Virus record (IMG/VR): IMGVR_UViG_3300033995_000182
Span: 1-32,966 of that record
Length of the DNA: 32,966 bases
Strand: one strand, 5' to 3'
Origin: a virus
Lineage: Duplodnaviria; Caudoviricetes
The position numbers and the translations under genes are program-made. Below, piece after piece: positions 1 through 10,935 of this stretch. Under the pieces are notes generated by a model. That model made no database searches, was not told the origin of the DNA, and was given only the letters and a program-made list of their open reading frames with translations. Positions within the stretch are counted from its first letter, which is position 1. Every line of letters begins with the position of its first letter.

Positions 1-12
1 GGGAAAGAATAT

Positions 13-88
13 ACCAGGGTAGCTCAGCGGTAGAGCGGGAGGCTCATAACCTCAAGGTCGGTGGTTCAAATCCACCCCTCTGGTACCA
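13..88 (+). tRNA. tRNA-CAT (elongator Met or Ile2)
   Basis: Acceptor ACCAGGG/CTCTGGT-A-CCA, D arm GCTC/GAGC, anticodon loop CT-CAT-AA, T loop TTCAAAT. Lacks initiator hallmarks. Confidence 0.93.
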
Positions 89-93
89 AGTTC

Positions 94-126
94 GGGGGAT
101 TAGCTCATCTGGGAGAGCGCCTGCTT
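94..126 (+). pseudogene. 5' half of a disrupted tRNA-Ala
   Basis: GGGGGATTAGCTCATCTGGGAGAGCGCCTGCTT is a typical tRNA-Ala 5' half (acceptor strand, D arm, 5' anticodon stem). It stops right before the anticodon and runs into TATAAATA. Confidence 0.88.
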
Positions 127-133
127 ATAAATA
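126..133 (+). promoter_or_regulatory. T4-type late promoter for HNH gene 1
   Basis: Exact TATAAATA, followed by AAGGAG SD and ATG at 155. Confidence 0.75.
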
Positions 134-154
134 AACAAAAGGAGATTCATTCTG

Positions 155-712
155 ATGTTTATATGTAAGTTCTGCAAAAAAGAATATAATATGAATGCTG
201 GCGGCATGGTTCATCAAAATCAATGTAAGTTAAATCCTGATAGAGTATCATATCAATTGGGTAGGACTGCTTGGAATAAAGGTAAGACTTCTGATTCGGA
301 TCCAAGAATATCTGCACTTTCTGCTAAAGTTTCTATAGCAATGAGAGGAAAGAAACCAGGAAATTGGAATCCAAACAGAGATAAGTTAAGTCAATATAGA
401 ACAGATTGCACATTTAAATTTTCAGTATATAATTATCCTAAAGAATTTAATCTTTCTTTAATTGAAGAAAGCGGCTGGTATAAAGCCAAAAATCGAGGTG
501 ATAATTTATACGGTATATCTAGAGATCATATGATTTCAGTTAAATATGGTTGGGAAAATAATATAGATCCAAAGATCATCTCTCACCCTGCAAATTGCAA
601 ATTAATGATTCATGGAGATAATGTGAGAAAATATTCAAACAATTCTATTTCTTTAGAAGAACTTCTTTATAAAATAGAACAATGGAATTCTAAATACGGG
701 GACGTAAGCTAA
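155..712 (+). CDS. HNH-type homing endonuclease with N-terminal Zn-finger/NUMOD-like DNA-binding region
   Basis: CKFC..H...C N-terminus, AWNKG NUMOD-like motif, C-terminal RDH...HPANC...H..N HNH-like motif. AT-rich. Stop codon lies inside the downstream tRNA-Ala. Confidence 0.75.
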   Translation: MFICKFCKKEYNMNAGGMVHQNQCKLNPDRVSYQLGRTAWNKGKTSDSDPRISALSAKVSIAMRGKKPGNWNPNRDKLSQYRTDCTFKFSVYNYPKEFNLSLIEESGWYKAKNRGDNLYGISRDHMISVKYGWENNIDPKIISHPANCKLMIHGDNVRKYSNNSISLEELLYKIEQWNSKYGDVS

Positions 713-771
713 CGGGAAACTGGCGCCTTTGCAAGGCGCACTTGAGGGTTCGATTCCCTCCGTCTCCACCA
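698..771 (+). tRNA. tRNA-Ala(TGC), replacement copy
   Basis: Acceptor GGGGACG/CGTCTCC-A-CCA with G3:U70, anticodon stem GCGCC/GGCGC with loop TT-TGC-AA, T arm GAGGG-TTCGATT-CCCTC. D arm is weak. Confidence 0.9.
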
Positions 772-775
772 GTTC

Positions 776-809
776 GAGGTGGTCGGTTCGAGTCCGACAT
801 TCTCCACCA
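776..809 (+). pseudogene. 3' half of the disrupted tRNA-Ala
   Basis: G-AGGTG-GTCGG-TTCGAGT-CCGAC-ATTCTCC-ACCA. ATTCTCC pairs with GGGGGAT at 94-100, including G3:U70. Confidence 0.88.
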
Positions 810-811
810 AA

Positions 812-876
812 ATTCGACGTCGCTTGCGGGAGCCACTGCGCCGGATCATGGCCGGTTCGACACCGGGACGTCGAAT
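812..876 (+). ncRNA. tRNA-like element lacking a normal anticodon arm and CCA
   Basis: 10-bp closing stem ATTCGACGTC/GACGTCGAAT, D-like hairpin GCTT-GCGG-GAGC, T-like arm CCGG-TTCGACA-CCGG. Confidence 0.45.
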
Positions 877-884
877 ACTTAAAT

Positions 885-960
885 GCCTCGGTAGCTCAGT
901 TGGTAGAGCATCGGTTTGAAGAACCGAGTGTCGGCGGTTCGACCCCGTCCCGAGGCACCA
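885..960 (+). tRNA. tRNA-Phe(GAA)
   Basis: Acceptor GCCTCGG/CCGAGGC-A-CCA, anticodon stem TCGGT/ACCGA with loop TT-GAA-GA. Confidence 0.95.
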
Positions 961-975
961 TTTTAAGGGTTATTC

Positions 976-1680
976 ATGAAAGATAAACTGTCTATTGTTA
1001 TTCCTTGTAAAAACGAGGAAAATTATATCTCATGGCTTCTTGAAAATCTTAAAATTCAAGAAGGCATTGAAGATGTTAAGATATATATAGCAGATGCATC
1101 AACAGATTCAACTCGAAGTGTAATTAAGAAAAATAGTAAGGACTTAAATATAAGTATCATTGAAGGTGGTCCAGTATCGACTGCTAAAAATAATGGTGCA
1201 AAACTTGTAACAACGCCTTATATTCTTTTTATTGATTCTGATGTTAGGTTCTTTCAAAAGACAGTTATTAAAGATACTGTAAAACTTTTGGAAGAAAATA
1301 ATCTAGATCTTATCGGTCTAAAGATCAAATGTTATGATGATTCCATAAGAACATCTTTAGGATTTATGTTGTTTAATGTTATCAATAAGATCCTATCTTA
1401 TTGGTGTCCTTTTGCTGTTGGGGCGTATATGCTGACTAGAACAGATAAGTTTAATAAACTAGGCGGGTTTCCTGCTAAATATGCTACATCTGAAGATTTC
1501 TTCCTATCCAAGAAATACAAACCTAACAAGTTTATGATCGCTGATCATTACTTTGGTCAAGATAGTCGTAGATTTAAGAAAATGGGTTATCTAGGTATGA
1601 GTTGGTATTTGATTAAAAACTTCCTAAATAGAAACAACGAAAAACATTGGAAGAATATAGATGGCAAAAAATACTGGTAA
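976..1680 (+). CDS. Family 2 glycosyltransferase
   Basis: LSIVIPCKNEE start, DASTDST, A.NNGA, FIDSD (DxD) and SED motifs. Confidence 0.9.
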   Translation: MKDKLSIVIPCKNEENYISWLLENLKIQEGIEDVKIYIADASTDSTRSVIKKNSKDLNISIIEGGPVSTAKNNGAKLVTTPYILFIDSDVRFFQKTVIKDTVKLLEENNLDLIGLKIKCYDDSIRTSLGFMLFNVINKILSYWCPFAVGAYMLTRTDKFNKLGGFPAKYATSEDFFLSKKYKPNKFMIADHYFGQDSRRFKKMGYLGMSWYLIKNFLNRNNEKHWKNIDGKKYW

Positions 1681-2410
1681 ATATAAATCGGTTTTCATCT
1701 CTGATCTGCATCTTGGTTCTAAGCACTGCAACTCCGAAGAACTCTTGACATTCCTATCTAAAATCCAGACAGATAAATTATATCTGGTGGGAGACATTCT
1801 GGATATGTGGCGTTTAAAAAAGAAGTGGTATTGGCCTAAGGCACACAATCAGATCTTAAGAAAGATTCTCAAGATATCTGAGAAGACTGAAGTCGTATAT
1901 GTTACCGGCAATCATGATGAGATATTTAGAAGTTTTCCAAATATTAGGATCGGACGAATATCAGTTGAACATCGATGCGTATATATAGGATTAGATGGTA
2001 AACGGTATCTTGTGATTCATGGTGACCTATTTGATAACCTAATGAGAACAAAAACAGGTCGCATGATTATGCATCTCGGAGACTTTGCATACGACTCATT
2101 GATTTATATCAATAAAATCATCAATGCAGCCCGTAGAATGTTGAGAATGCAACCTTGGAGTTTGGCTAAATACTTAAAGCGTAGAGCTAAGTTGGCAGCA
2201 AACTATATCGGTGATTTTGAAAAAGAAATGACTCTCTACTGTCAGAAAAAAGGTTATGATGGTATTATATGTGGTCATATCCATCATGCAGAGATTACGT
2301 CGTATGACGGTATTGTCTATATGAATGATGGTGACTGGTGTGAAAGTTGTACTGCACTTGTAGAAACAGTGGACGGCATTTGGAAGATTATTAAAACATC
2401 AGATTTATAA
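1661..2410 (+). CDS. Calcineurin-like metallophosphoesterase, LpxH2/PlcP (UDP-2,3-diacylglucosamine hydrolase-like) family
   Basis: SDLHLG, GDILD, GNHD, HGD, CGHIH and NDGDWCESCTALVE motifs. Confidence 0.88.
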   Translation: MAKNTGKYKSVFISDLHLGSKHCNSEELLTFLSKIQTDKLYLVGDILDMWRLKKKWYWPKAHNQILRKILKISEKTEVVYVTGNHDEIFRSFPNIRIGRISVEHRCVYIGLDGKRYLVIHGDLFDNLMRTKTGRMIMHLGDFAYDSLIYINKIINAARRMLRMQPWSLAKYLKRRAKLAANYIGDFEKEMTLYCQKKGYDGIICGHIHHAEITSYDGIVYMNDGDWCESCTALVETVDGIWKIIKTSDL

Positions 2411-2411
2411 T

Positions 2412-2488
2412 GCCCGTGTAGTCCAATTGGTAGAGGCGCCTGGTTTAGGTCCAGGATGTTGGGGGTTCGAGTCCCTCCACGGGTACCA
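2412..2488 (+). tRNA. tRNA-Leu(TAG) with short variable loop
   Basis: Acceptor GCCCGTG/CACGGGT-A-CCA, anticodon stem CCTGG/CCAGG with loop TT-TAG-GT, variable region only ATGTT. Confidence 0.88.
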
Positions 2489-2496
2489 AGTTTAAT

Positions 2497-2521
2497 GCCC
2501 GATTAGCTCAGCGGTAGAGCA
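2497..2521 (+). pseudogene. 5' fragment of a disrupted tRNA (probably Val)
   Basis: GCCCGAT-TA-GCTC-AGCGGTA-GAGC-A is an acceptor strand plus complete D arm, followed abruptly by AT-rich TTATAAATTTATAAATA. Confidence 0.85.
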
Positions 2522-2530
2522 TTATAAATT

Positions 2531-2538
2531 TATAAATA
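2531..2538 (+). promoter_or_regulatory. T4-type late promoter for HNH gene 2
   Basis: Exact TATAAATA, followed by TAAGGAG SD and ATG at 2566. Confidence 0.75.
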
Positions 2539-2565
2539 ACTTAGTAATTGAGCTAAGGAGTTTAT

Positions 2566-3093
2566 ATGCATAAGTGTGAAACATGTGACAAAGAATTTGA
2601 TAGTCATCGCAAACTAAATGGGCATAAAAGCGTACATCGTGAAGGTGGAAGGTATTCTGTTTCACGTAGAACTAAAGAATCCATATCGTGTCCAAACTGT
2701 AAAACTTTGACATTTAATGCTAAATATTGTAGTAATAAATGTCAACATGAACATGAATGGAAAGAACGGTTTAATCAAATACAATCCGGTGAAGTTCTCG
2801 CTGAACAACATATGAAACGTTATTTGTTTGAAACGCGCGGTGAATGTTGTGCGGAGTGTGGTATAGGTTCTGAATGGAATAATAAACCTCTTACTTTGCA
2901 GATGGATCATATAGATGGAAATAGTGATAATAATTTACTAGACAATTTACAAATTCTGTGTCCTAATTGCCATACACAGACACATACATGGTGTGGTAGA
3001 AATAAGAAGAATACTAAACGCAATAAGTATAATAGAATTTATAGATCACGGGTCCTTAACTCAGTTGGTAGAGTGCATCCTTTACACGGATGA
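2566..3093 (+). CDS. HNH homing endonuclease with C2H2 zinc finger
   Basis: CETC...H...H zinc finger, CPNC/YCSNKC, CAECG...LQMDHIDGNSDNNLLDNLQILCPNCH canonical HNH. Stop TGA lies inside tRNA-Val. Confidence 0.9.
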   Translation: MHKCETCDKEFDSHRKLNGHKSVHREGGRYSVSRRTKESISCPNCKTLTFNAKYCSNKCQHEHEWKERFNQIQSGEVLAEQHMKRYLFETRGECCAECGIGSEWNNKPLTLQMDHIDGNSDNNLLDNLQILCPNCHTQTHTWCGRNKKNTKRNKYNRIYRSRVLNSVGRVHPLHG

Positions 3094-3125
3094 AGTCGGC
3101 GGTTCGAACCCGTCAGGACCTACCA
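3050..3125 (+). tRNA. tRNA-Val(TAC), replacement copy
   Basis: Acceptor GGGTCCT/AGGACCT-A-CCA, anticodon stem CATCC/GGATG with loop TT-TAC-AC, T arm GGCGG-TTCGAAC-CCGTC. Confidence 0.95.
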
Positions 3126-3132
3126 TATTTCC

Positions 3133-3164
3133 GGTCGGCGGTTCAATCCCGTCATCGGGTACCA
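3133..3164 (+). pseudogene. 3' fragment of the disrupted tRNA
   Basis: GGTC-GGCGG-TTCAATC-CCGTC-ATCGGGT-ACCA. ATCGGGT pairs over all 7 bp with GCCCGAT at 2497-2503. Confidence 0.87.
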
Positions 3165-3167
3165 GTT

Positions 3168-3305
3168 TTGAGGTAAGGAAAGCACGTTAGGGGGACGGAT
3201 CGGGCCGCAACCGACTTGCTCTATAGTGACCGACTGATCATCGGTAAAAGGAGAATGGGAGTCGTCGGTGGTTTTTCCGGACGGCGGATACCTCACCTGC
3301 CTCAA
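3168..3305 (+). ncRNA. Candidate structured ncRNA (~138 nt) in the tRNA array
   Basis: Closing stem TTGAGGTA-A-GG/CCTGCCTCAA; internal hairpins TCGG/CCGA, ACCGA/TCGGT, GTCGTC/GACGGC. GC-rich, no credible ORF. Confidence 0.55.
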
Positions 3306-3314
3306 TTTGATTAT

Positions 3315-3391
3315 ACTCTCGTAGCTCAACTGGATAGAGCGCTCGCCTACGAAGCGAAAGGTTACAGGTTCGAGTCCTGTTGAGAGTGCCA
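3315..3391 (+). tRNA. tRNA-Arg(ACG)
   Basis: Acceptor ACTCTCG/TGAGAGT-G-CCA, anticodon loop CT-ACG-AA. Confidence 0.93.
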
Positions 3392-3411
3392 TTTTATGAA
3401 GGAGAATAACT

Positions 3412-3606
3412 ATGCCACTTAAGACTGAAGTTCATATCGGTGAATATGTACGTGATGAAGATACCGGTCCTGGTGAGTCTTCATTGAATGGCAATATCCA
3501 TTTTGATTGCCAAGGTGTAACACCTAATGAAAAACAAAAGATTCGTGATATCTTGGATCGGTTCTATAAAGAAATTCGTACAGAGCTAAAAACTATTGTA
3601 CAATAA
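3412..3606 (+). CDS. Hypothetical protein (64 aa)
   Basis: AAGGAG SD; fills the gap between tRNA-Arg and tRNA-Asn. Confidence 0.7.
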   Translation: MPLKTEVHIGEYVRDEDTGPGESSLNGNIHFDCQGVTPNEKQKIRDILDRFYKEIRTELKTIVQ

Positions 3607-3642
3607 TTGATATATAGTATATACTAAGAATATAAGAGTTAT

Positions 3643-3717
3643 TTCCTCGTAGCTCAGTGGTAGAGCAGACGACTGTTAATCGTCCGGTCATTCGTTCGAA
3701 TCGAATCGAGGAAGCCA
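3643..3717 (+). tRNA. tRNA-Asn(GTT)
   Basis: Acceptor TTCCTCG/CGAGGAA-G-CCA, anticodon stem GACGA/TCGTC with loop CT-GTT-AA. Confidence 0.94.
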
Positions 3718-3719
3718 AT

Positions 3720-3840
3720 AGCGTGCGGTGCACGGGTCCTTAGCAAGACGTTAAACTGCTAGATAATCTCTGGAAGGGGCGCCGATGCATCGGGTCATGT
3801 TCCAAGGCGCAACATGTCGGGACTTATTCTCTCGCACGCT
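3720..3840 (+). ncRNA. Candidate structured ncRNA (~121 nt)
   Basis: Closing stem AGCGTGCG/CGCACGCT; inner GTCC/GGAC, TAGCA/TGCTA, CCGAT/ATCGG and CATGTT/AACATG helices. Confidence 0.6.
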
Positions 3841-3851
3841 GAACCAGAAAT

Positions 3852-4152
3852 ATCTCGTGTGGTATCCTACCATCACACGGTCTTATAAGGGGTAGGATAT
3901 GAATCTAGTTGTCCGTCGGCTAGAGACGAGATTAATGTGGAGACTCTTATGGGTAAAGCATAGGGCGGACCGTTTTCATAGATCTGGGTCGACGGACCTG
4001 GTAAGAAGTGTGACTGAACTATCCTCTGTCGATGGGGATAAGGTAGACTCGGTGGGCGGTCCCCTCCCTAACCAGGAACGAGTCGTGGGTTGAGAATTAC
4101 ATAGTAATTGACTGGACCTTGGAGGTATAACTGAATCCTCCCACTTCGCTTA
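3852..4152 (+). ncRNA. Candidate large ornate ncRNA (~300 nt) with pseudoknots
   Basis: At least nine complementary pairs, including crossing long-range ones (see findings). No ORF with an SD. Confidence 0.6.
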
Positions 4153-4169
4153 TTCAAGAGGATTATATC

Positions 4170-4319
4170 ATGTGGCGCATTTGGGCTAAAGCCTTAGGTG
4201 AGAAGGCAACTCCTTGTGATCGCGAATCTGACAGAGTCGCTTTGATCCGGACGTTGTTCATTGTACAGGCTGTTATAGCAAATGTGTTTCTTGTTGCAAA
4301 TGCAATTCATCATTGGTAG
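4170..4319 (+). CDS. Small membrane protein MWRIWAKALGEK...IHHW (49 aa)
   Basis: GAGGA SD, hydrophobic C-half. Resembles a small protein type I recall from T4-like aquatic phages. Below the ORF-track cutoff. Confidence 0.75.
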   Translation: MWRIWAKALGEKATPCDRESDRVALIRTLFIVQAVIANVFLVANAIHHW

Positions 4320-4330
4320 GAGATTTTATC

Positions 4331-4507
4331 ATGGCTAAAAAGCAACTAATCGCTGGAACAGTCGGCATTGCTGTGGTGGGTATCCTATCATACCTTGGGT
4401 ACCGGATGTTCAAGGAAATTAACGATCTAGACATGATAGATTTCATGGGAGAGAACGTTGATGATGTATACCACTATCGTACACCAAAAAGTGGCCATAG
4501 AGGCTAA
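4331..4507 (+). CDS. Hypothetical protein with N-terminal TM helix
   Basis: AGGAG SD before ATG 4331; LIAGTVGIAVVGILSYLGY helix. Confidence 0.7.
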   Translation: MAKKQLIAGTVGIAVVGILSYLGYRMFKEINDLDMIDFMGENVDDVYHYRTPKSGHRG

Positions 4508-4525
4508 CATATCGAGCGTTGAAAA

Positions 4526-4557
4526 AAAATGCGGCTGGGTGATCCTGGCCGCATTTT
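4526..4557 (+). terminator. Stem-loop/terminator immediately upstream of an early promoter
   Basis: AAAATGCGGC...GCCGCATTTT inverted repeat. Confidence 0.65.
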
Positions 4558-4561
4558 AGTA

Positions 4562-4590
4562 TGTACATATTATCAAAACTGTCGTAGTAT
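4562..4590 (+). promoter_or_regulatory. Early promoter
   Basis: TGTACA-N17-TAGTAT. Confidence 0.75.
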
Positions 4591-4614
4591 GAATAATAAC
4601 GAATGGAGATTGAC

Positions 4615-4935
4615 ATGATCAAGGTTTACCAAATCCAGCTTACCGATGCAGAATTTTGGATGATCAACAGCGGCGAAACCAGTCCGAAGATCAAGGCATA
4701 CTTTGATCGTTCGTTCGACTCGATGTTCAAGGCTGAGAACTTTCAGTACTACACCCGTGTTGCTGACGTTTATGCCAATGATATGGAAGATGCCTTCCGT
4801 CTGATGAACCTCTGGGAACAGCCTGAGTTGGTCGTTAAGCTTGGTCGTTGCTCTTCGATGTCGGTTGGTGATATCGTTGAGATGGATAACGGCGAACGCT
4901 ATCGTTGCGCTTCGTTTGGCTTTGAGGAGATTTGA
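4615..4935 (+). CDS. Hypothetical protein, YodL-like motif
   Basis: GGAG SD; KVYQI start and SMSVGDIV motif. Confidence 0.7.
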   Translation: MIKVYQIQLTDAEFWMINSGETSPKIKAYFDRSFDSMFKAENFQYYTRVADVYANDMEDAFRLMNLWEQPELVVKLGRCSSMSVGDIVEMDNGERYRCASFGFEEI

Positions 4936-4950
4936 TGCATAAATAACTGT

Positions 4951-5238
4951 ATGGGTTACGATACTATATTCAAACTTATTGGTGATGTCGGATTCCCCAT
5001 CGCAGCAGCATTGCTCGGTGGGGTTTTTGTTTATTTTGTCATCAATTACATTCTCGATAGCGTCGTTAAGGCAATCAAGGGAATGCAAGGTATTATTATG
5101 GGACTTGACAACAGAGTCAAGACAATGAACCATGATATAATCCGGGTGGATGCAGTTGTAAGTTCAGCTTTAGGTCTTAAACCAGACCTAGACCGAATCG
5201 CACGAGCAGACGGGAAGAACGATGCTCGGAGGGACTGA
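4951..5238 (+). CDS. Small membrane protein (GFPI motif, holin-like)
   Basis: IGDVGFPIAAA TM helix then amphipathic/coiled tail. Preceded by late-like CATAAATA at 4938-4945. Confidence 0.75.
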   Translation: MGYDTIFKLIGDVGFPIAAALLGGVFVYFVINYILDSVVKAIKGMQGIIMGLDNRVKTMNHDIIRVDAVVSSALGLKPDLDRIARADGKNDARRD

Positions 5239-5501
5239 TGGATTTGCAGTTAATTACGGGGTTCGTAAAGCTTTACGGATTCCCTATCGTTGCCGCTGTC
5301 GGCATGGGCTACTTCGTGTGGTTCATCTATAAATTTGTCACCGATAGACTGATGCCACTGATAGGCGAAACCAATGTCATTCTGATTGCATTGATCGATC
5401 GTGTCCGCATGCTGGACAACGATCTCATTCGGTTGAACCAGAAGGTTATCGTCGTGTTGCAGATCAAGGAGGATCACAGTGATTATAAGTCTAAAGATTG
5501 A
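5238..5501 (+). CDS. Small membrane protein, paralog of the upstream gene
   Basis: YGFPIVAAVGMGYFVWF helix; DRVRMLDNDLIRL aligns with DNRVKTMNHDIIRV. TGATG coupling. Confidence 0.75.
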   Translation: MDLQLITGFVKLYGFPIVAAVGMGYFVWFIYKFVTDRLMPLIGETNVILIALIDRVRMLDNDLIRLNQKVIVVLQIKEDHSDYKSKD

Positions 5502-5604
5502 AATTCTTAAGGTTTTCAAACTCGAGTTCGAGATGGGTGGTTTTGATAAGATTCTGAAGAAGAAGGAATCTACGGCCGATACCGACGGACCGAAGGCAAA
5601 ATAG
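5479..5604 (+). CDS. Small hypothetical protein (41 aa, GTG start)
   Basis: GGAGG SD; fills the gap to the next promoter. Confidence 0.4.
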   Translation: MIISLKIEILKVFKLEFEMGGFDKILKKKESTADTDGPKAK

Positions 5605-5627
5605 TTTCCATCACCGCAAATTAGTTG

Positions 5628-5656
5628 TGTACAATAATCCCAAAGCATGATAGGGT
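5628..5656 (+). promoter_or_regulatory. Early promoter
   Basis: TAGTTG-TGTACA-N17-TAGGGT. Confidence 0.65.
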
Positions 5657-5662
5657 TAACCT

Positions 5663-6148
5663 ATGATGATGAAGGATGACAACGTGGAAATCAGTATCAC
5701 CGGTATGGTCGGCAAGCGGAACGAAAAGGCCATGCTTGATGCGGCCGCCAGGTTCTTCGCTGAGCAGCTCATGGATCCTAGGATGGTTCGCAACCTCAAG
5801 ATCAACATCGAGGTCCGCAAAGGCATTGACATCGACGGTGAGTGCGTCAATGAGGACGGTATTCGCAACCCACGATGGTTCACCATCGGCCTCAAGTATC
5901 AAGACATCAACGAGATGATCAAGACTCTCGGTCACGAGATGGTGCATGTCAAGCAGCATGCCAAGAACGAACTTCAGACAGGTATTTTCGTTGCCTCACG
6001 TGGTGGCCACAATATGCACAACCGCTGGCAGGGTACGATCTGGAAGCCGAAGGCTAAGGAAGATGCCTACTTCGATTCTCCTTGGGAGATCGAGGCGTAT
6101 GGCCGTGAAGTCGGCCTCTTCTATAAGTGGAATGCTTACAACGTCTAA
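5663..6148 (+). CDS. Zincin-like metallopeptidase domain protein
   Basis: TLGHEMVHVKQ (HExxH) and SPWEIEAY motifs. Confidence 0.8.
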   Translation: MMMKDDNVEISITGMVGKRNEKAMLDAAARFFAEQLMDPRMVRNLKINIEVRKGIDIDGECVNEDGIRNPRWFTIGLKYQDINEMIKTLGHEMVHVKQHAKNELQTGIFVASRGGHNMHNRWQGTIWKPKAKEDAYFDSPWEIEAYGREVGLFYKWNAYNV

Positions 6149-6164
6149 TATGAAAGGTTATATT

Positions 6165-6272
6165 ATGAATCACCCTCATCAACGTGAACCGTTTGATGGC
6201 ATGCCTAAAGTGGGTTGTCTTGGTTTTGTAATTTTCTTTGCCCTACTGTTTTTTTTGTTATGGAGATTTTAG
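6165..6272 (+). CDS. Small membrane peptide (35 aa)
   Basis: AAGG SD; hydrophobic C-terminus. Confidence 0.5.
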   Translation: MNHPHQREPFDGMPKVGCLGFVIFFALLFFLLWRF

Positions 6273-6316
6273 TTCAACCGATCTTCGCGAACGTATCAAG
6301 AAAGCTAAGTAACTCG

Positions 6317-6324
6317 TATAAATA
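6317..6324 (+). promoter_or_regulatory. Late promoter
   Basis: TATAAATA upstream of a hairpin leader and the EF-hand/hsp20 genes. Confidence 0.7.
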
Positions 6325-6379
6325 CTACCGGTCACGCCTAATGGGTGGCCAAATCTAAACTCGCTTAATAGGAGCATAT

Positions 6380-6631
6380 ATGAAAAGTGTAATTCTCGGT
6401 CTCGTGGCCGCAACTCTCATGACAACGCCAGCAGCAGCTACCTCGTGGAAGGTAGATCTCTTCGACCGTCTCGATGCTGACAGCAATGCAACCCTCACAC
6501 TTGAAGAACTTCGTCTTGCCGAGTGCAAGACCGATACTAAGATGTTCAAGTATGCAGACAAGAATCATGACCTGGTTCTGACTCCATCTGAGTATTTCAC
6601 AAACCGTGATCTGCTTGGTCGCTGCAAGTAG
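6380..6631 (+). CDS. Secreted EF-hand protein
   Basis: Signal peptide ending PAAA; two EF-loop-like 12-mers DADSNATLTLEE and DKNHDLVLTPSE; two Cys. Confidence 0.7.
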   Translation: MKSVILGLVAATLMTTPAAATSWKVDLFDRLDADSNATLTLEELRLAECKTDTKMFKYADKNHDLVLTPSEYFTNRDLLGRCK

Positions 6632-6636
6632 GGAGA

Positions 6637-7155
6637 ATGAATATGTTTGATACAAAGCCTTTCGACCGTTTCTTTGTAGGATTTGATCCTATCATGAAGA
6701 GGTTCGCCGAAGCAACCGAGCAGTCACTAAAGATTGCTCAAAACTATCCTCCGTACAATATCAAGAAGATTGATGAGAACAAGTACGTTATCGAAATGGC
6801 TGTGGCTGGTTTTGGTAAGCAGGATCTTGAGATCGAACTGGTTGATGACAAGCTCATCATCAAGGGCAGCAATGTCCACCAGGGTGAGCCTGCTCAGCAG
6901 GATTCGGATGGCGAATGGACCTGGCCAGCTATGCTATATCAGGGCCTTGCAATGCGTCCATTCACGCGTACGTTCAATCTTGCTGATAACGTAGAGATCT
7001 GCGGCGCCTCGCTGCTCAATGGCATTCTCAAGATTGCTCTGGAATCAATTATCCCAGAACATAAGAAGCCAAAGAAGATCAAAATTGATGAGGTAGAAGA
7101 TGATGTGTCTACACCTTCGACTGCTGAATTTTTAGCAGAACGCAAGGACAAGTAA
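6637..7155 (+). CDS. hsp20: Small heat shock protein Hsp20/IbpA family
   Basis: NYPPYNI, IEMAVAGF, GLAMRPFTRTF and NGILKI motifs. Confidence 0.95.
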   Translation: MNMFDTKPFDRFFVGFDPIMKRFAEATEQSLKIAQNYPPYNIKKIDENKYVIEMAVAGFGKQDLEIELVDDKLIIKGSNVHQGEPAQQDSDGEWTWPAMLYQGLAMRPFTRTFNLADNVEICGASLLNGILKIALESIIPEHKKPKKIKIDEVEDDVSTPSTAEFLAERKDK

Positions 7156-7162
7156 CTAAAAA

Positions 7163-7188
7163 GAAGGGGGAGCCGAAACTCCCCCTTC
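7163..7188. terminator. Terminator between convergent genes
   Basis: GAAGGGGGAG-CCGAAA-CTCCCCCTTC; the upstream A-run gives a U-tail on the minus strand. Confidence 0.8.
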
Positions 7189-7191
7189 AAC

Positions 7192-8370
7192 TTATCCCCA
7201 AGCAAAAAACTGTTTGGTCTTCTTAAGTCGATCATCTAAGCCGTGCGTTCCACCATTCACACGTTTTGTAATCTGTGTGATGACAACGTCGGTAACTCCT
7301 TTGTCTGCAATCGCAAACAAATTATTCTTTTTAAAGAACCAGAGGGCCGACTCAAATGCCAATTCACCAAGAAGCAAATCAGGATTTGTTAAAACGTCAG
7401 GCCGTTGAACTGAGGCGGCAAAAGCTGTATAGTTGTCTTTCCCGGTCAGTTGGATCGGGCCTCGACCACGAAACTTCCAGCCATCTCCAGAGGCTTCTGC
7501 CCCGTTCCCCATCCGATTAGCATATACCTTATTGGCAATCTTCTCAGGCTTACGAGCATATGGCTGTGCTACAGCAACACTTGTAAAGTACTTCTTGAAG
7601 ATTGTCGATAGGCCTTCAGCTGAGTAGTTGAGGTTCTCCGAGAACACCTTGAAGTTGCCTGATTCATGAGCACACTGACCGAAGAAGTGTGCTGCCTGGC
7701 CGTTGGTTAGTTTGAAGTAGTTTCTAGCCGCCTTATAAGTACCAGGTCCCCACTTACCGTCAGCAGACACACCACACTTAGTTTGGAGAGAAGCCAATGG
7801 ACCAAGACCAGATGGAGTTGCCTTTTGAGCAGTCTGCACAACAGTTACTTGACCAGTTGTTGCAGGAGACGCTGCGCCAGTTCGACCTGGAAGCGTCGAG
7901 GGATCAAAATCCTTCACCTGAGTGTACGTAGTACCACCGGCCTTAGACTTACTGGCAATCATACGCATCTTGCGGTTTCCGCCGGCCTTCTTAATCGAGG
8001 CATGGACCCAACCAGAATTCTTATCACCACTCGTATAGAACTCTAAGATTACCTGGTCAAACTCTAGGTTATCGGCAACCCAGTCAGCAACCTTCTTATT
8101 GTCAACACCCTTGACTTCGAAGTCAATTGCCTGTCCATTGACATGCTGTGATGTCTTTGACCCACCAACCGCCTTGTTGACTAGTGGTGCACGGTACGAA
8201 GAGTTGATTGTTACTGCACCAAAGTGTGCACGAACTGGTTCCAGAATCTTTTCACAACAATATCTCATGTTCTCGACGTGTTCTGGTGTAGGTGTGTTGC
8301 TAAGACCTAGTCTCTTAGCTGTAGGAGAAACAATCATTTCTTCTAGAGAAAAATTATCAGTCAACTTCAT
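7192..8370 (-). CDS. Bifunctional lysin: peptidase M15 + PG-binding motif + GH19 glycosidase
   Basis: N-terminal SSYR, SQH..GQAID and GWVH (M15); ADGKWGPGT; C-terminal HESG, FRGRGPIQLTGKDNY and TKRVNGG (GH19). Confidence 0.9.
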   Translation of the reverse strand: MKLTDNFSLEEMIVSPTAKRLGLSNTPTPEHVENMRYCCEKILEPVRAHFGAVTINSSYRAPLVNKAVGGSKTSQHVNGQAIDFEVKGVDNKKVADWVADNLEFDQVILEFYTSGDKNSGWVHASIKKAGGNRKMRMIASKSKAGGTTYTQVKDFDPSTLPGRTGAASPATTGQVTVVQTAQKATPSGLGPLASLQTKCGVSADGKWGPGTYKAARNYFKLTNGQAAHFFGQCAHESGNFKVFSENLNYSAEGLSTIFKKYFTSVAVAQPYARKPEKIANKVYANRMGNGAEASGDGWKFRGRGPIQLTGKDNYTAFAASVQRPDVLTNPDLLLGELAFESALWFFKKNNLFAIADKGVTDVVITQITKRVNGGTHGLDDRLKKTKQFFAWG

Positions 8371-8388
8371 CTTTTATTCCTTTATGTA

Positions 8389-8417
8389 TGTACATATATT
8401 CATACCTGTGCTATACT
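8389..8417 (+). promoter_or_regulatory. Early promoter for DNA polymerase
   Basis: TGTACA-N17-TATACT with extended TG. Confidence 0.75.
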
Positions 8418-8439
8418 TAATATTGGTCAAGGAGACATC

Positions 8440-10935
8440 ATGAATTTTTACACCAATATCACACGGCACAAGGGTAATATTCTGGTCCGTGGAATCAAGG
8501 ACGGTACGCCGTACAAGTTTTCCACCAAGTATAAGCCGTATCTATTTATTCCTTCTAATAAATCTACCGACTATACCAACCTGAAGGGTGAGTATGTCGG
8601 GCGCGTAGACTTTGACTCTATGTATGAGGCGCGTGAGTTCCTCAACCAGTACGATAATGTGAGTGGCATGAAGATCTATGGTCTCAGCGACTTTGCATAC
8701 CTGTACATATATGATAACTATCGAGGGCAGATCAACTATGATCCGGCCCAGGTTTCTGTTTGTTCTATCGATATTGAGACGGCCATTGATGGTGGTTTCC
8801 CTGATATCTCTATAGCTCAGAATGAGATTACAGCTATTACCATCGGCCGCAATGGTAACAAGATTTCCTTTGGTTGCGGTGAATATAAGGAGCACAAATC
8901 TAATGTCACATACTTCAAATGCAAAGACGAGTCTGCACTCCTGGAGTCTTTCCTCGGTGTCTGGTCAGGACCAGAGTTTAATCCTGACGTTGTCACCGGC
9001 TGGAACATCGAGTTCTTCGACATCCCGTACATTATCAACCGTATCAAGCGTGTTCTCGGCGATGATGCAGCCAATCGTCTTAGCCCTTGGGGAATCCTCA
9101 GGGACTATAAAGTCGAGATCCGCGGCCGCACCAATGTAGCATACACACCAGTAGGTGTTGCTGTCCTCGACTACATGCAACTTTATAAGAAGTTCACATA
9201 CGTTACTCGTGAGTCGTACAAGCTCGATCATATCGGTTCCGTTGAACTTGATATGCCCAAGCTTGACTACTCCGAGTACGAAGGTCTCGATGACCTTCGG
9301 TTGAAGAACTTTCAAAAGTACATGGAGTACAACATCCACGACGTTGAGATTGTGGAGAAGCTAGAGGACAAACTGAAGCTGATCGAACTGGTCTATGCCA
9401 TGGCATACGATGCTAAGATCAACTACAATGACTGTCTGGCATCCGTGAAGCAGTGGGATGTTATCACCCACAACTATCTCATGGATCGTAAAATTGTTGT
9501 CAACCCATTCGGTAAGACAAATGATTCTATACTTGTCGGCGGCCATGTCAAGGAGCCAAAGACCGGTTTGAGTAAGTGGGTTGTGTCGTTCGATCTTAAT
9601 TCCCTTTATCCCCACCTTATTATGCAGTACAACATCTCTCCGGAGACGTTTGTTACTCGTTTGAACGATAAGGTGACGGTTGACGACCTACTTGTTGGCG
9701 GCGCAGAGAAGTTCGGTGACTATCTTGATAAGACGAACTGTGCTCTCGCCGCCAACCTTTGTTTGTATTCAAAGGACAAGCGTGGGTTCCTTCCATCTCT
9801 TATGGAACGTATGTACAACGATCGTGTCCGTTACAAGAAGGAGATGATCGAGGTCAAGAAGGAGTATGAAAAGACTAAGAACAAAGATCTACTCAAGGAG
9901 ATTGCACGTCTTGATAACATGCAGATGGCCAAGAAGATCCAGTTGAACTCAGCTTACGGTGCACTTGGTAACAAGTACTTCCGCTGGTTCGATATCAACC
10001 ACGCCGAGGCCATCACCATGTCCGGTCAGTTGTCCATCCGTTGGATTGAGAAGAAGATGAATGAGTACCTCAACCGTCTCTTCAAGACCGAGAACATGGA
10101 CTATGTGATCGCATCTGATACCGACTCAATCTACATTACACTAGACTATCTTGTCCATATGATGTATCCTAACGGTGCACCTGATGTAGAACTTGTGAAG
10201 TTCATCGATGAGGCATGTAAGCAGAAGATCGAGCCGTTCATCGACCGTGCCTATCAGGAACTTGCCGACAACATGCATGCCTATGCACAGAAGATGCAGA
10301 TGAAGCGTGAGAACATCGCCAACAAGGGTATCTGGAAGGCAAAGAAGATGTACATCCTCAATGTCTGGAACTCTGAGGGTGTTCAGTACGACAAGCCGAA
10401 GCTGAAGATGATGGGCATCGAGGCGGTTCGTTCATCGACTCCTCCATCTTGCCGTGATGCCATTAAGAAGTCCCTTGAGATCATCATGAACGAAAGTGAA
10501 CAGGTACTGCACAAGTATGTTGCTGACTTCCGCAACCTGTTCAATACGCTTCCTTTCGAGGAGATTGCATTCACCAGTTCGGTCAAGGACATGGACAAGT
10601 ACTTCATTGCCGGTCAATTCCAGTCTGGTTGTCCAATCCACGTCCGTGGTGCAGTGGTCTACAATAAAATTATCAAGGACCTCAAGCTTCAGAATAAATA
10701 TGAAACCATTGGTTCAGGTGAAAAGATCAAGTACGCCTACCTTAAGAAGCCAAATCCGTCCAAGGAGCATGTCATCTCTTGCCCATCAACACTTCCTAAG
10801 GAGTTCGGTATTGGTCCGTTCATCGACCGTGAACTGCAATTTGACAAGGCGTACATCAAGCCTATTGAGTCAATCATCAACACTATCGGCTGGCACGTAG
10901 AGAAACGTGCAACATTGGAGGACTGGTTTTCATGA
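8440..10935 (+). CDS. gp43: Family B DNA polymerase, T4 gp43-like
   Basis: DIET exonuclease motif, GWNIEFFD, SFDLNSLYP, KIQLNSAYG and ASDTDS motifs; C-terminal TLEDWF clamp-binding tail. Confidence 0.98.
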   Translation: MNFYTNITRHKGNILVRGIKDGTPYKFSTKYKPYLFIPSNKSTDYTNLKGEYVGRVDFDSMYEAREFLNQYDNVSGMKIYGLSDFAYLYIYDNYRGQINYDPAQVSVCSIDIETAIDGGFPDISIAQNEITAITIGRNGNKISFGCGEYKEHKSNVTYFKCKDESALLESFLGVWSGPEFNPDVVTGWNIEFFDIPYIINRIKRVLGDDAANRLSPWGILRDYKVEIRGRTNVAYTPVGVAVLDYMQLYKKFTYVTRESYKLDHIGSVELDMPKLDYSEYEGLDDLRLKNFQKYMEYNIHDVEIVEKLEDKLKLIELVYAMAYDAKINYNDCLASVKQWDVITHNYLMDRKIVVNPFGKTNDSILVGGHVKEPKTGLSKWVVSFDLNSLYPHLIMQYNISPETFVTRLNDKVTVDDLLVGGAEKFGDYLDKTNCALAANLCLYSKDKRGFLPSLMERMYNDRVRYKKEMIEVKKEYEKTKNKDLLKEIARLDNMQMAKKIQLNSAYGALGNKYFRWFDINHAEAITMSGQLSIRWIEKKMNEYLNRLFKTENMDYVIASDTDSIYITLDYLVHMMYPNGAPDVELVKFIDEACKQKIEPFIDRAYQELADNMHAYAQKMQMKRENIANKGIWKAKKMYILNVWNSEGVQYDKPKLKMMGIEAVRSSTPPSCRDAIKKSLEIIMNESEQVLHKYVADFRNLFNTLPFEEIAFTSSVKDMDKYFIAGQFQSGCPIHVRGAVVYNKIIKDLKLQNKYETIGSGEKIKYAYLKKPNPSKEHVISCPSTLPKEFGIGPFIDRELQFDKAYIKPIESIINTIGWHVEKRATLEDWFS

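Follow-up and report, generated by a model that had tools for sequence, protein, structure and literature searches.

In the window analysed here, the entire virus record IMGVR_UViG_3300033995_000182 (a linear fragment of 32,966 nucleotides (nt), 17% complete), we found two cassettes, each made of one open reading frame (ORF) and one complete transfer RNA (tRNA) gene, which lie inside a second gene for a tRNA of the same isotype. The interrupted genes, one for tRNA-Ala and one for tRNA-Val, have lost 9 and 18 nt, respectively. Alleles without the cassettes exist, and the Val cassette has been transferred at least once. We consider that each cassette is most probably a free-standing homing endonuclease gene together with a rescue tRNA, inserted into a gene for the same tRNA.

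All 24 sequencing runs listed for the window are of lake or freshwater DNA, and the closest matches of its gp43 are cyanophages, at an identity of only 50%. Recombinase and helicase-like ORFs, which from our own reading of the sequences we take to be of the T4 type, stand alongside the polymerase gene.

Architecture and predicted expression of the two cassettes

Both cassettes lie on the + strand and share one order: the 5′ part of the old tRNA gene, a putative T4-type late promoter, a Shine–Dalgarno sequence (SD), the ORF, a complete tRNA gene, a spacer and the 3′ part of the old gene. In cassette 1, the 5′ remnant of an old tRNA-Ala(UGC) gene (94..126; tRNA positions 1–33) is followed by the motif TATAAATA (126..133), the SD (140–144), ORF1 (155..712; 185 amino acids (aa)), a cargo tRNA-Ala(UGC) with its CCA and an atypical D-arm (698..771), a 4-nt spacer that is not in the empty allele (772..775) and the 3′ remnant (776..809; positions 43–76 with CCA). 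In cassette 2, the 5′ remnant of an old tRNA-Val(UAC) gene (2497..2521; positions 1–26) precedes the same motif (2531..2538), the SD (2555–2560), ORF2 (2566..3093; 175 aa), a cargo tRNA-Val(UAC) with CCA (3050..3125; 64 bits in Rfam), which is retained in two other loci, L002 and L003, a 7-nt spacer that is the same in L002 (3126..3132) and the 3′ remnant (3133..3164; positions 45–76 with CCA). The cargo tRNA gene overlaps the end of the ORF by 15 nt in cassette 1 and by 44 nt in cassette 2. ARAGORN called 7 tRNAs in the window, both cargo tRNAs included, and a pattern running from the T-loop to the CCA gave 8 matches, among them the two orphan 3′ parts (786–809 and 3141–3164).

An initial annotation of this DNA, made from the sequence alone, had described this nested order in both copies, the pairing of the orphan halves over a 7-bp acceptor stem and the loss of all or part of the anticodon arm from the old tRNAs. 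All of this was borne out, at the coordinates then described. Comparison with intact natural alleles showed that positions 34–42 are gone from the Ala gene and positions 27–44 from the Val gene, the anticodon included in both cases.

These losses bear directly on the possibility that the cassettes are introns, where the inner tRNA and the message would be excised and the outer halves ligated into a working tRNA. The 7-bp pairing of the halves would fit such splicing, and precise CCA-ended inserts do exist in the tRNA genes of other phages, one of them in print as a tRNA-like intron of Lak phages (PMC6784885). However, both outer genes are without an anticodon, no Rfam intron family was matched at E values up to 1 over positions 1–10000, and the junctions vary between relatives, so that this explanation is very improbable and close to refuted. 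A group I intron in a tRNA gene was rejected as a separate candidate, as there is no ribozyme core in Rfam searches and the exons cannot rejoin into a complete tRNA.

The two encoded proteins show no similarity to each other (best BLASTP E value, 4.7). ORF2 has N-terminal C2H2 and further zinc-binding motifs and is assigned to the HNH endonucleases by Pfam (PF01844, E = 7e-6, above the cut-off); it also matches PHROG 10822 (E = 9e-26). Its residues D114, H115, N127 and H136 are invariant in 41 sequences, and its structure model has a predicted local distance difference test score (pLDDT) of 82. Comparison of its alignment with PDB sequences returned mostly C2H2 zinc fingers, together with the HNH domains of McrA and ZRANB3 at E values of 0.002–0.005. 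The ratio of nonsynonymous to synonymous changes (dN/dS) is 0.04 against L003, which indicates that ORF2 is under purifying selection; dS was saturated in the comparison of ORF2 with L006 and in two of the four ORF1 pairs.

ORF1 has an N-terminal zinc-finger-like part and a C-terminal domain that is likely of the HNH type, which would make it a likely nuclease. Its database matches are PHROG 23051 (E = 1e-33) and PHROG 5104, both of unknown function, and a Pfam search gave no match below E = 0.1. The assignment draws on six residues, D124, H125, H144, N147, N156 and K159, that are invariant in 25 aligned sequences (a DH...H..N...N..K pattern), on the structure model (pLDDT 86), for which the top-ranked folds, all weak, are the HNH domains of Cas9, BrxU, Gme HNH and similar proteins, and on its Atlas neighbours, which include HNH clusters. 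The earlier statement that these are two HNH proteins that are not close relatives was therefore right about their distance and about ORF2, while ORF1 is better called HNH-type, by its motif and weak fold matches.

The motif TATAAATA occurs eight times on the + strand of the window and not once on the − strand. Upstream of ORF1, a hairpin predicted at 123..170 would bury the SD and the ATG on read-through transcripts (−14.4 kcal/mol, z = −4.9, none of 200 shuffles as stable); folded from just past the late promoter, the same start gives only −3.8 kcal/mol. A hairpin predicted at 2531..2566 holds the late promoter motif of cassette 2 and would bury the SD of ORF2 (−11.4 kcal/mol, z = −3.5, 0/200 shuffles). 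Both hairpins lose most of their stability when folded from downstream of the promoter. The stretch from the promoter to the ATG of ORF2 is invariant in the window, L002, L003 and L006, even though the L006 protein is only 64% identical. A late promoter combined with a hairpin that buries the ribosome-binding site (RBS) is described for I-TevI, I-TevII, I-TevIII, segB and mobE (PMC2988022); this control trait, common but not obligatory among T4-type homing endonucleases, is predicted for both ORFs. As the cargo overlaps the end of the ORF, maturation of the tRNA would remove the stop codon from the message, and a clipping of this kind has been proposed for segB (PMC2330249). From these features we infer a late, hairpin-repressed expression of both ORFs.

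Empty alleles and movement of the cassettes

Pattern scans for intact genes bearing the remnant ends gave 66 viral loci for Ala and 20 for Val. One of the Ala loci, L074, has the same Met-Ala order as the window and matches the 5′ remnant at 33/33 nt and the 3′ remnant at 32/34 nt; the latter remnant is identical to that of another locus, L010, over 34/34 nt. Among the Val loci, 9 of the 20 matched both remnants exactly (32/32 nt for the 3′ remnant), and all four exact matches that were checked (L079, L086, L093 and L094) have the order Leu-Val-Arg with the spacer of the window. As the remnant ends match intact Ala and Val genes, the old genes were those of tRNA-Ala(UGC) and tRNA-Val(UAC), which are the isotypes of the cargo.

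Empty and filled joints were then sought in eight of the 24 lake and freshwater runs, none of them marked as a possible source of the record. At site 1, the exact empty joint, in which 126 is linked to 776 by the 9 missing nt, was found in three runs (X9, X21 and X6), and at site 2 the empty joint (2521 to 3133, with 18 nt) was found in five. The contig depths are rough figures that give no share of genomes; in X9 they were 12.7 for the filled form of site 1, 24.8 for the empty form and 34.2 for the flank, so that filled and empty forms roughly sum to the flank. In X21, a contig with the upstream flank of the window phage contains the empty joint of site 1. The depth of cassette 2 was about 0.7 to 1.1 of that of the downstream flank. 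Exact empty alleles are therefore found alongside the filled form in lake runs, as well as in related phages, and the intact-site relatives that the initial annotation had called for do exist.

Flank variants at 887–1021 appear linked to cassette 1. Where the flank type of the window is dominant (X6 and X4), the depth of cassette 1 is high, and with the other type it is roughly one third; in X4, the window type is present at 887–954 but absent at 1020–1021. These variants could reflect a co-conversion tract or clonal linkage.

The same data make a mis-assembly of repeated tRNA sequences hardly credible. tRNA arrays are repeat-rich, and the unitigs of cassette 1 reach only 30 nt past each junction. 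Nevertheless, both junctions of cassette 1 were found again in the metagenome contig L379 (which may be the same phage population), site 2 was found again in L002 and L005, the contigs of cassette 1 had no differences in 8/8 runs, and in X9 one contig of 2277 nt runs right across cassette 2.

The copy of the Val cassette in L002 differs from that of the window at 2 of 611 nt, both changes being synonymous, while the flanks of the two copies are unrelated (172/325 and 155/321 aligned). In the L002 remnants, the acceptor stem has the pair G6-C67, compared with A6-U67 in the window, and the Val allele with G6-C67 was found intact in 4 of 38 matches. Dead halves are not selectable for pairing. The simplest reading of these sequences is that the Val cassette entered this natural allele, a different one from that of the window, by crossovers within the old halves. 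The cassettes are mobile, and the earlier suggestion that the old halves serve as homology arms is supported for at least one transfer.

A relative of ORF2 with 89% protein identity, L003, is inserted in yet another Val allele, the third, where fewer nucleotides have been lost. The deleted intervals of the window and L003 overlap at about tRNA positions 31–37, that is, in the anticodon loop. The overlap suggests that the cut may fall where the cassette is inserted, which would differ from the T4 cases of intronless homing, where the cut sites are described as lying far from the insertion site of the gene (PMC2988022). In the more distant L006, a 5′ remnant is followed by a hybrid tRNA with unpaired acceptor strands, and L082 is an empty relative with the same upstream gene end. 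The junctions of the cassettes vary among relatives. In L006 and also in L007, at about 2985–3060, a hybrid Val-like gene comes after the ORF2 relative; its acceptor strands are unpaired, and ARAGORN made no call for it. These cassettes may have lost the rescue copy.

Nuclease families, cargo tRNAs and neighbouring features

The analysis covered the 80 best-matching loci of each family, out of 202 for ORF1 and at least 555 for ORF2, plus L379, L002 and L008. They comprise 66 and 73 distinct loci, respectively, with a tRNA present in 63 and 67 and abutting the nuclease gene in 35 and 40. Among these abutting tRNAs, Ala accounts for 16/35 in the ORF1 family (background 34/305), and Val (15) and Thr (16) together account for 31/40 in the ORF2 family (backgrounds 14/300 and 32/300). 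One locus, L222, has an Ala gene that is identical to the cargo of the window over 74/74 nt behind an ORF1 relative of 50% identity, and no tRNA remnants were found there. The same Ala gene behind a distant nuclease, together with the isotype bias of the families, argues that the nuclease and the tRNA are a linked pair. Closer relatives of ORF1 (P0002–P0009) are 63–73% identical; a locus search with the single protein gave one weak viral match, a metagenome scan with the close relatives gave three loci, two of them identical to ORF1, and cultured phages have only distant relatives of either protein.

In both families, the commonest state is a nuclease gene with an adjoining tRNA and without remnants. 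A 5′ remnant alone was read by eye in L238, L305, L310 and L328; these one-remnant loci are examples only, as the loose pattern for 5′ remnants also fired on non-tRNA sequence (12/31 and 16/33 loci without an abutting tRNA). In L305, the remnant pairs with the 3′ strand of the tRNA better than the 5′ strand of that tRNA does, which marks a hybrid tRNA. By these comparisons, the two-remnant layout is a rare outcome of insertion, at the rare end of a continuum.

A generic scan looked for a tRNA end closely followed by a second T-arm and CCA. An estimated ∼620 viral stretches have this arrangement, of which 124 loci, representing 119 distinct sites, were retrieved from 13 of the 64 parts. Upstream DNA was long enough for analysis at 78 sites; at 27 of them the tRNA is abutted by an ORF of at least 90 aa, and a pairing 5′ remnant is present in 13 of these 27 (window excluded), compared with a permutation mean of 0.86 and a maximum of 5 in 2000. 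The layout is therefore not a product of chance. The 27 ORFs include 18 matches to named nuclease families (HNH, endonuclease VII, PD-(D/E)XK, GIY-YIG and endonuclease I-like), one match to the PHROG of ORF1 and eight ORFs with no match at the thresholds used. The nearest isotype of the remnant equals that of the cargo in 15 of 17 sites, where 1.1 is expected by chance; these sites are the two of the window and 15 others, selected because each has a cargo call, an ORF and a remnant that pairs. The isotype classifier was right for 104 of 150 complete tRNAs, and at L121 the 5′ remnant was wrongly picked while the 3′ part still matched.

The generic scan also returned a separate class of phage tRNA genes, in which the anticodon loop is split at a precise point by a tRNA-shaped insert that ends in CCA and varies in length, and in which, by eye, the outer tRNA has lost nothing (L096, L097, L103, L110, L115, L120, L125, L127, L142, L162–L163 and others). 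Three of these inserts are in one genome (L162–L164), and L151 has an HNH ORF within the insert. They may be introns, with tRNA-processing enzymes and a ligase acting in their removal. The cassettes of the window fall outside this class, as their outer tRNAs are incomplete at both sites.

Compared with the intact alleles, the cargo tRNAs are only 65–74% identical overall (Ala versus L074, 50/77; Val versus L086, 56/76), and the anticodon loops are the same in both. Elements that use an integrase at a tRNA attachment site also have a tRNA gene as their target and restore its function by their own sequence. In the window, there is no integrase, the single ORF of each cassette being of another type, there is no exact direct repeat at this level of identity, and target bases are deleted; an integrative element of this kind was therefore rejected.

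Divergence of the cargo was also followed in the D-arm, with counts that include related sequences and are not independent. The canonical D-arm motif is present in 0/14 Ala cargos versus 20/51 (p = 0.003). It does not differ significantly for Val (3/12 versus 10/29) or Thr (3/17 versus 18/53), and with the isotypes pooled (9/69 versus 125/605) D-arm divergence fails as a general mark of the cargo. Resistance of the cargo to cleavage, as proposed in the initial annotation, thus has mixed support from these comparisons.

The atypical cargo Ala, perfectly conserved between distant cassettes, could also be taken as a sign of selection at the RNA level: the cargo would escape a tRNA-cutting defence of the host, or the protein would itself attack a tRNA for which the cargo is the antidote, and the DNA layout would be a by-product. 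Phage tRNAs are indeed described as countering tRNA-targeting defences (PMC13096335, PMC11555353). Against this, the zinc fingers, the HNH domain and the late control with a repressing hairpin are in keeping with an enzyme that homes in DNA, the damage consists of an insertion into DNA and a deletion at a fixed place, and the cargo does not differ from the intact allele in its anticodon loop. We regard RNA-level selection as an improbable sole explanation; it can coexist with homing and rescue.

Several other features lie near the cassettes. Between the Ala remnant and tRNA-Phe, 811–878 folds into a closed stem with a T-loop-like hairpin (z = −2.2) without an ARAGORN or Rfam call and is possibly a small tRNA-like RNA. 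The GC-rich intergenic stretches 3165–3306 and 3719–3841 have paired ends (z = −1.0 and −2.0) and no Rfam match, and are candidate structured RNAs; the second has an 89% match in L002. Genes for a family 2 glycosyltransferase and a metallophosphoesterase lie within the tRNA array (976–2410), and a manA RNA above the Rfam gathering score is found at 3985–4151.

Known systems, proposed cycle and implications

Several of our observations weigh against homing with rescue. The cargo Val has a 15-nt run across the anticodon arm that is identical to the intact allele, so that immunity would have to rest on neighbouring positions, and the D-arm divergence of the cargos is significant for Ala only. For ORF1, the best Foldseek E value is 0.25 and the best Z score is 4.4 (root mean square deviation 3.2, 83 aligned), and the fold searches gave nothing with E ≤0.001 or Z ≥5, although a weak match does not imply a different fold. 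Cassette 1 is not fixed; its depth ranges from ∼0.26 to 1.0 of the downstream flank over the eight runs. In X6, the depth of the empty Val joint is 123.9, compared with 26 for the window phage, so that other phages must share the empty Val allele. In L002, the stretches of homology that could serve as arms measure only about 19 and 22 nt. Moreover, crossovers in mosaic arrays fall naturally at tRNA genes, and ordinary shuffling is expected to place them inside these genes too; L002 therefore shows transfer and not the nuclease as its cause.

The same line of thought leads to the explanation in which the nuclease genes are SegB-like or passive passengers: the enzyme cuts elsewhere or broadly, or is irrelevant, and the nesting arose by chance and ordinary recombination of tRNA genes and was kept for its same-isotype tRNA. 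The prevalence of the remnant-free state would fit this, as would the rarity of an orphan 3′ part, which follows just 2/35 abutting tRNAs in the ORF1 family (the window phage's own copy and one unrelated duplication) and 3/40 in the ORF2 family, own copy included. The cargo Val also retains the anticodon arm. Matching isotypes could come partly from survival bias, and survival bias alone might suffice for them. On the other hand, passengers would not readily account for insertions inside the matching tRNA with deletions that overlap at the anticodon loop, for a family link to Ala or to Val/Thr even without remnants, for identical junctions in two different Val alleles, or for purifying selection together with a conserved control element. 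We therefore consider this explanation unlikely, though it is the strongest of the alternatives.

SegB of T4 and T6, a GIY-YIG enzyme, is itself the known phage homing endonuclease closest in setting: its free-standing gene lies in a T4-like tRNA array and it targets tRNA genes (PMC2330249; PMC13096335). It is further alike in the RBS-burying hairpin, in a gene end that abuts a tRNA, whose maturation would clip the message, and in its absence from relatives. However, SegB is described as reading a T-loop motif, cutting the 3′ end of many tRNA genes and moving a multi-gene region, in a neighbourhood without isotype preference, and the passages on SegB in these two reports describe no split tRNA remnants. 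Here, the cassette lies inside one tRNA gene, the anticodon is removed, one same-isotype copy is carried and the enzymes are of the HNH type.

A likeness in principle is offered by the endonuclease ORFs of fungal mitochondria (Allomyces atp6; Glomus atp6, atp9, cox2 and nad3), where an insert, a divergent replacement and a native remnant are described (PMC3630166). The three components, endonuclease, divergent replacement and native remnant, are all found in our cassettes; the analogy is one of working principle, and we claim no shared ancestry. In the fungal elements, protein genes are invaded and a partial copy restores a hybrid gene, for which the direct counterpart here is the one-remnant hybrid tRNA, for example in L305. 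In the window, by contrast, the element brings an entire RNA gene, leaves both native ends behind and resides in a phage. Group I introns with homing endonucleases (T4 td, nrdB and nrdD; bacterial tRNA introns) are alike in their insertion at or near the likely cut site in a conserved gene and in the late promoter with a translational hairpin, but here there is neither a ribozyme nor splicing, and the interrupted gene is destroyed and replaced. An engineered home-and-rescue gene drive also homes into a gene with its nuclease and carries a rescue copy (PMC7968924); this is a synthetic CRISPR construct in Drosophila and an analogy of principle only. For phage ICP1, islands of homing endonuclease genes with cargo genes are reported, and tRNA replacement is not described in the portion of that report on these islands (PMC10448857).

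Both ORFs have further traits of free-standing homing endonuclease genes: they lie outside an intron or intein, with no Rfam intron family and halves that cannot rejoin, and homologous alleles without the gene are present. We propose the following cycle for homing with rescue. The nuclease and its tRNA would already be a linked pair before insertion. The nuclease would be made late and at a low level, because the hairpin would keep read-through transcripts from being translated and the message would lose its stop codon as the tRNA matures. During co-infection, the nuclease would nick or cut the unbroken gene for tRNA-Ala or tRNA-Val around tRNA positions 31–37, at a recognition site that may span the D-arm and the anticodon arm. 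The first insertion would be an imprecise repair that leaves both remnants, and later copies would home by recombination through the remnants and flanks. The DNA of the carrier would be immune, since the remnant contains the site only in two parts and the cargo, as we propose, only in altered form, and the rescue tRNA would cover the loss of the destroyed gene.

The initial annotation had suggested a new mobile system. It is real, mobile and recurrent, but wholly new is too strong a description, given that it is the rare end of a continuum with a precedent in fungal mitochondria. In the full-text literature, whose coverage leaves most subscription papers outside, we found no description of a nuclease and a whole tRNA between two remnants. 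More tentatively, home-and-rescue elements may be natural and widespread in large phages, with nucleases of at least five unrelated types having captured cognate, cleavage-resistant tRNAs and driving isotype-specific replacement; we consider this a serious possibility without yet favouring it. If true, such a class would explain why phage tRNAs turn over fast and are often oddly shaped, and the precise tRNA-shaped introns could derive from cassettes that have decayed.

For practical purposes, tRNA finders miss tRNA remnants, and the unannotated family PHROG 23051 gains a candidate function and target. The intact Ala allele (94–126 joined to 776–809) is, as we take it, of the canonical bacterial type, so that ORF1 might also cut host tRNA-Ala genes. 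With two independent cassettes, exact empty alleles, both forms in lakes and crossovers placed to about 20 nt, the system is a testable case. It indicates that a homing endonuclease can occupy a useful gene without splicing, by destroying the gene and bringing a substitute, and it bears on the question of what makes the tRNA arrays of phages so mosaic. Should the cleavage model be correct, the tRNAs of phages would be shaped partly by selfish nucleases, beyond host codon use or anti-tRNA defences.

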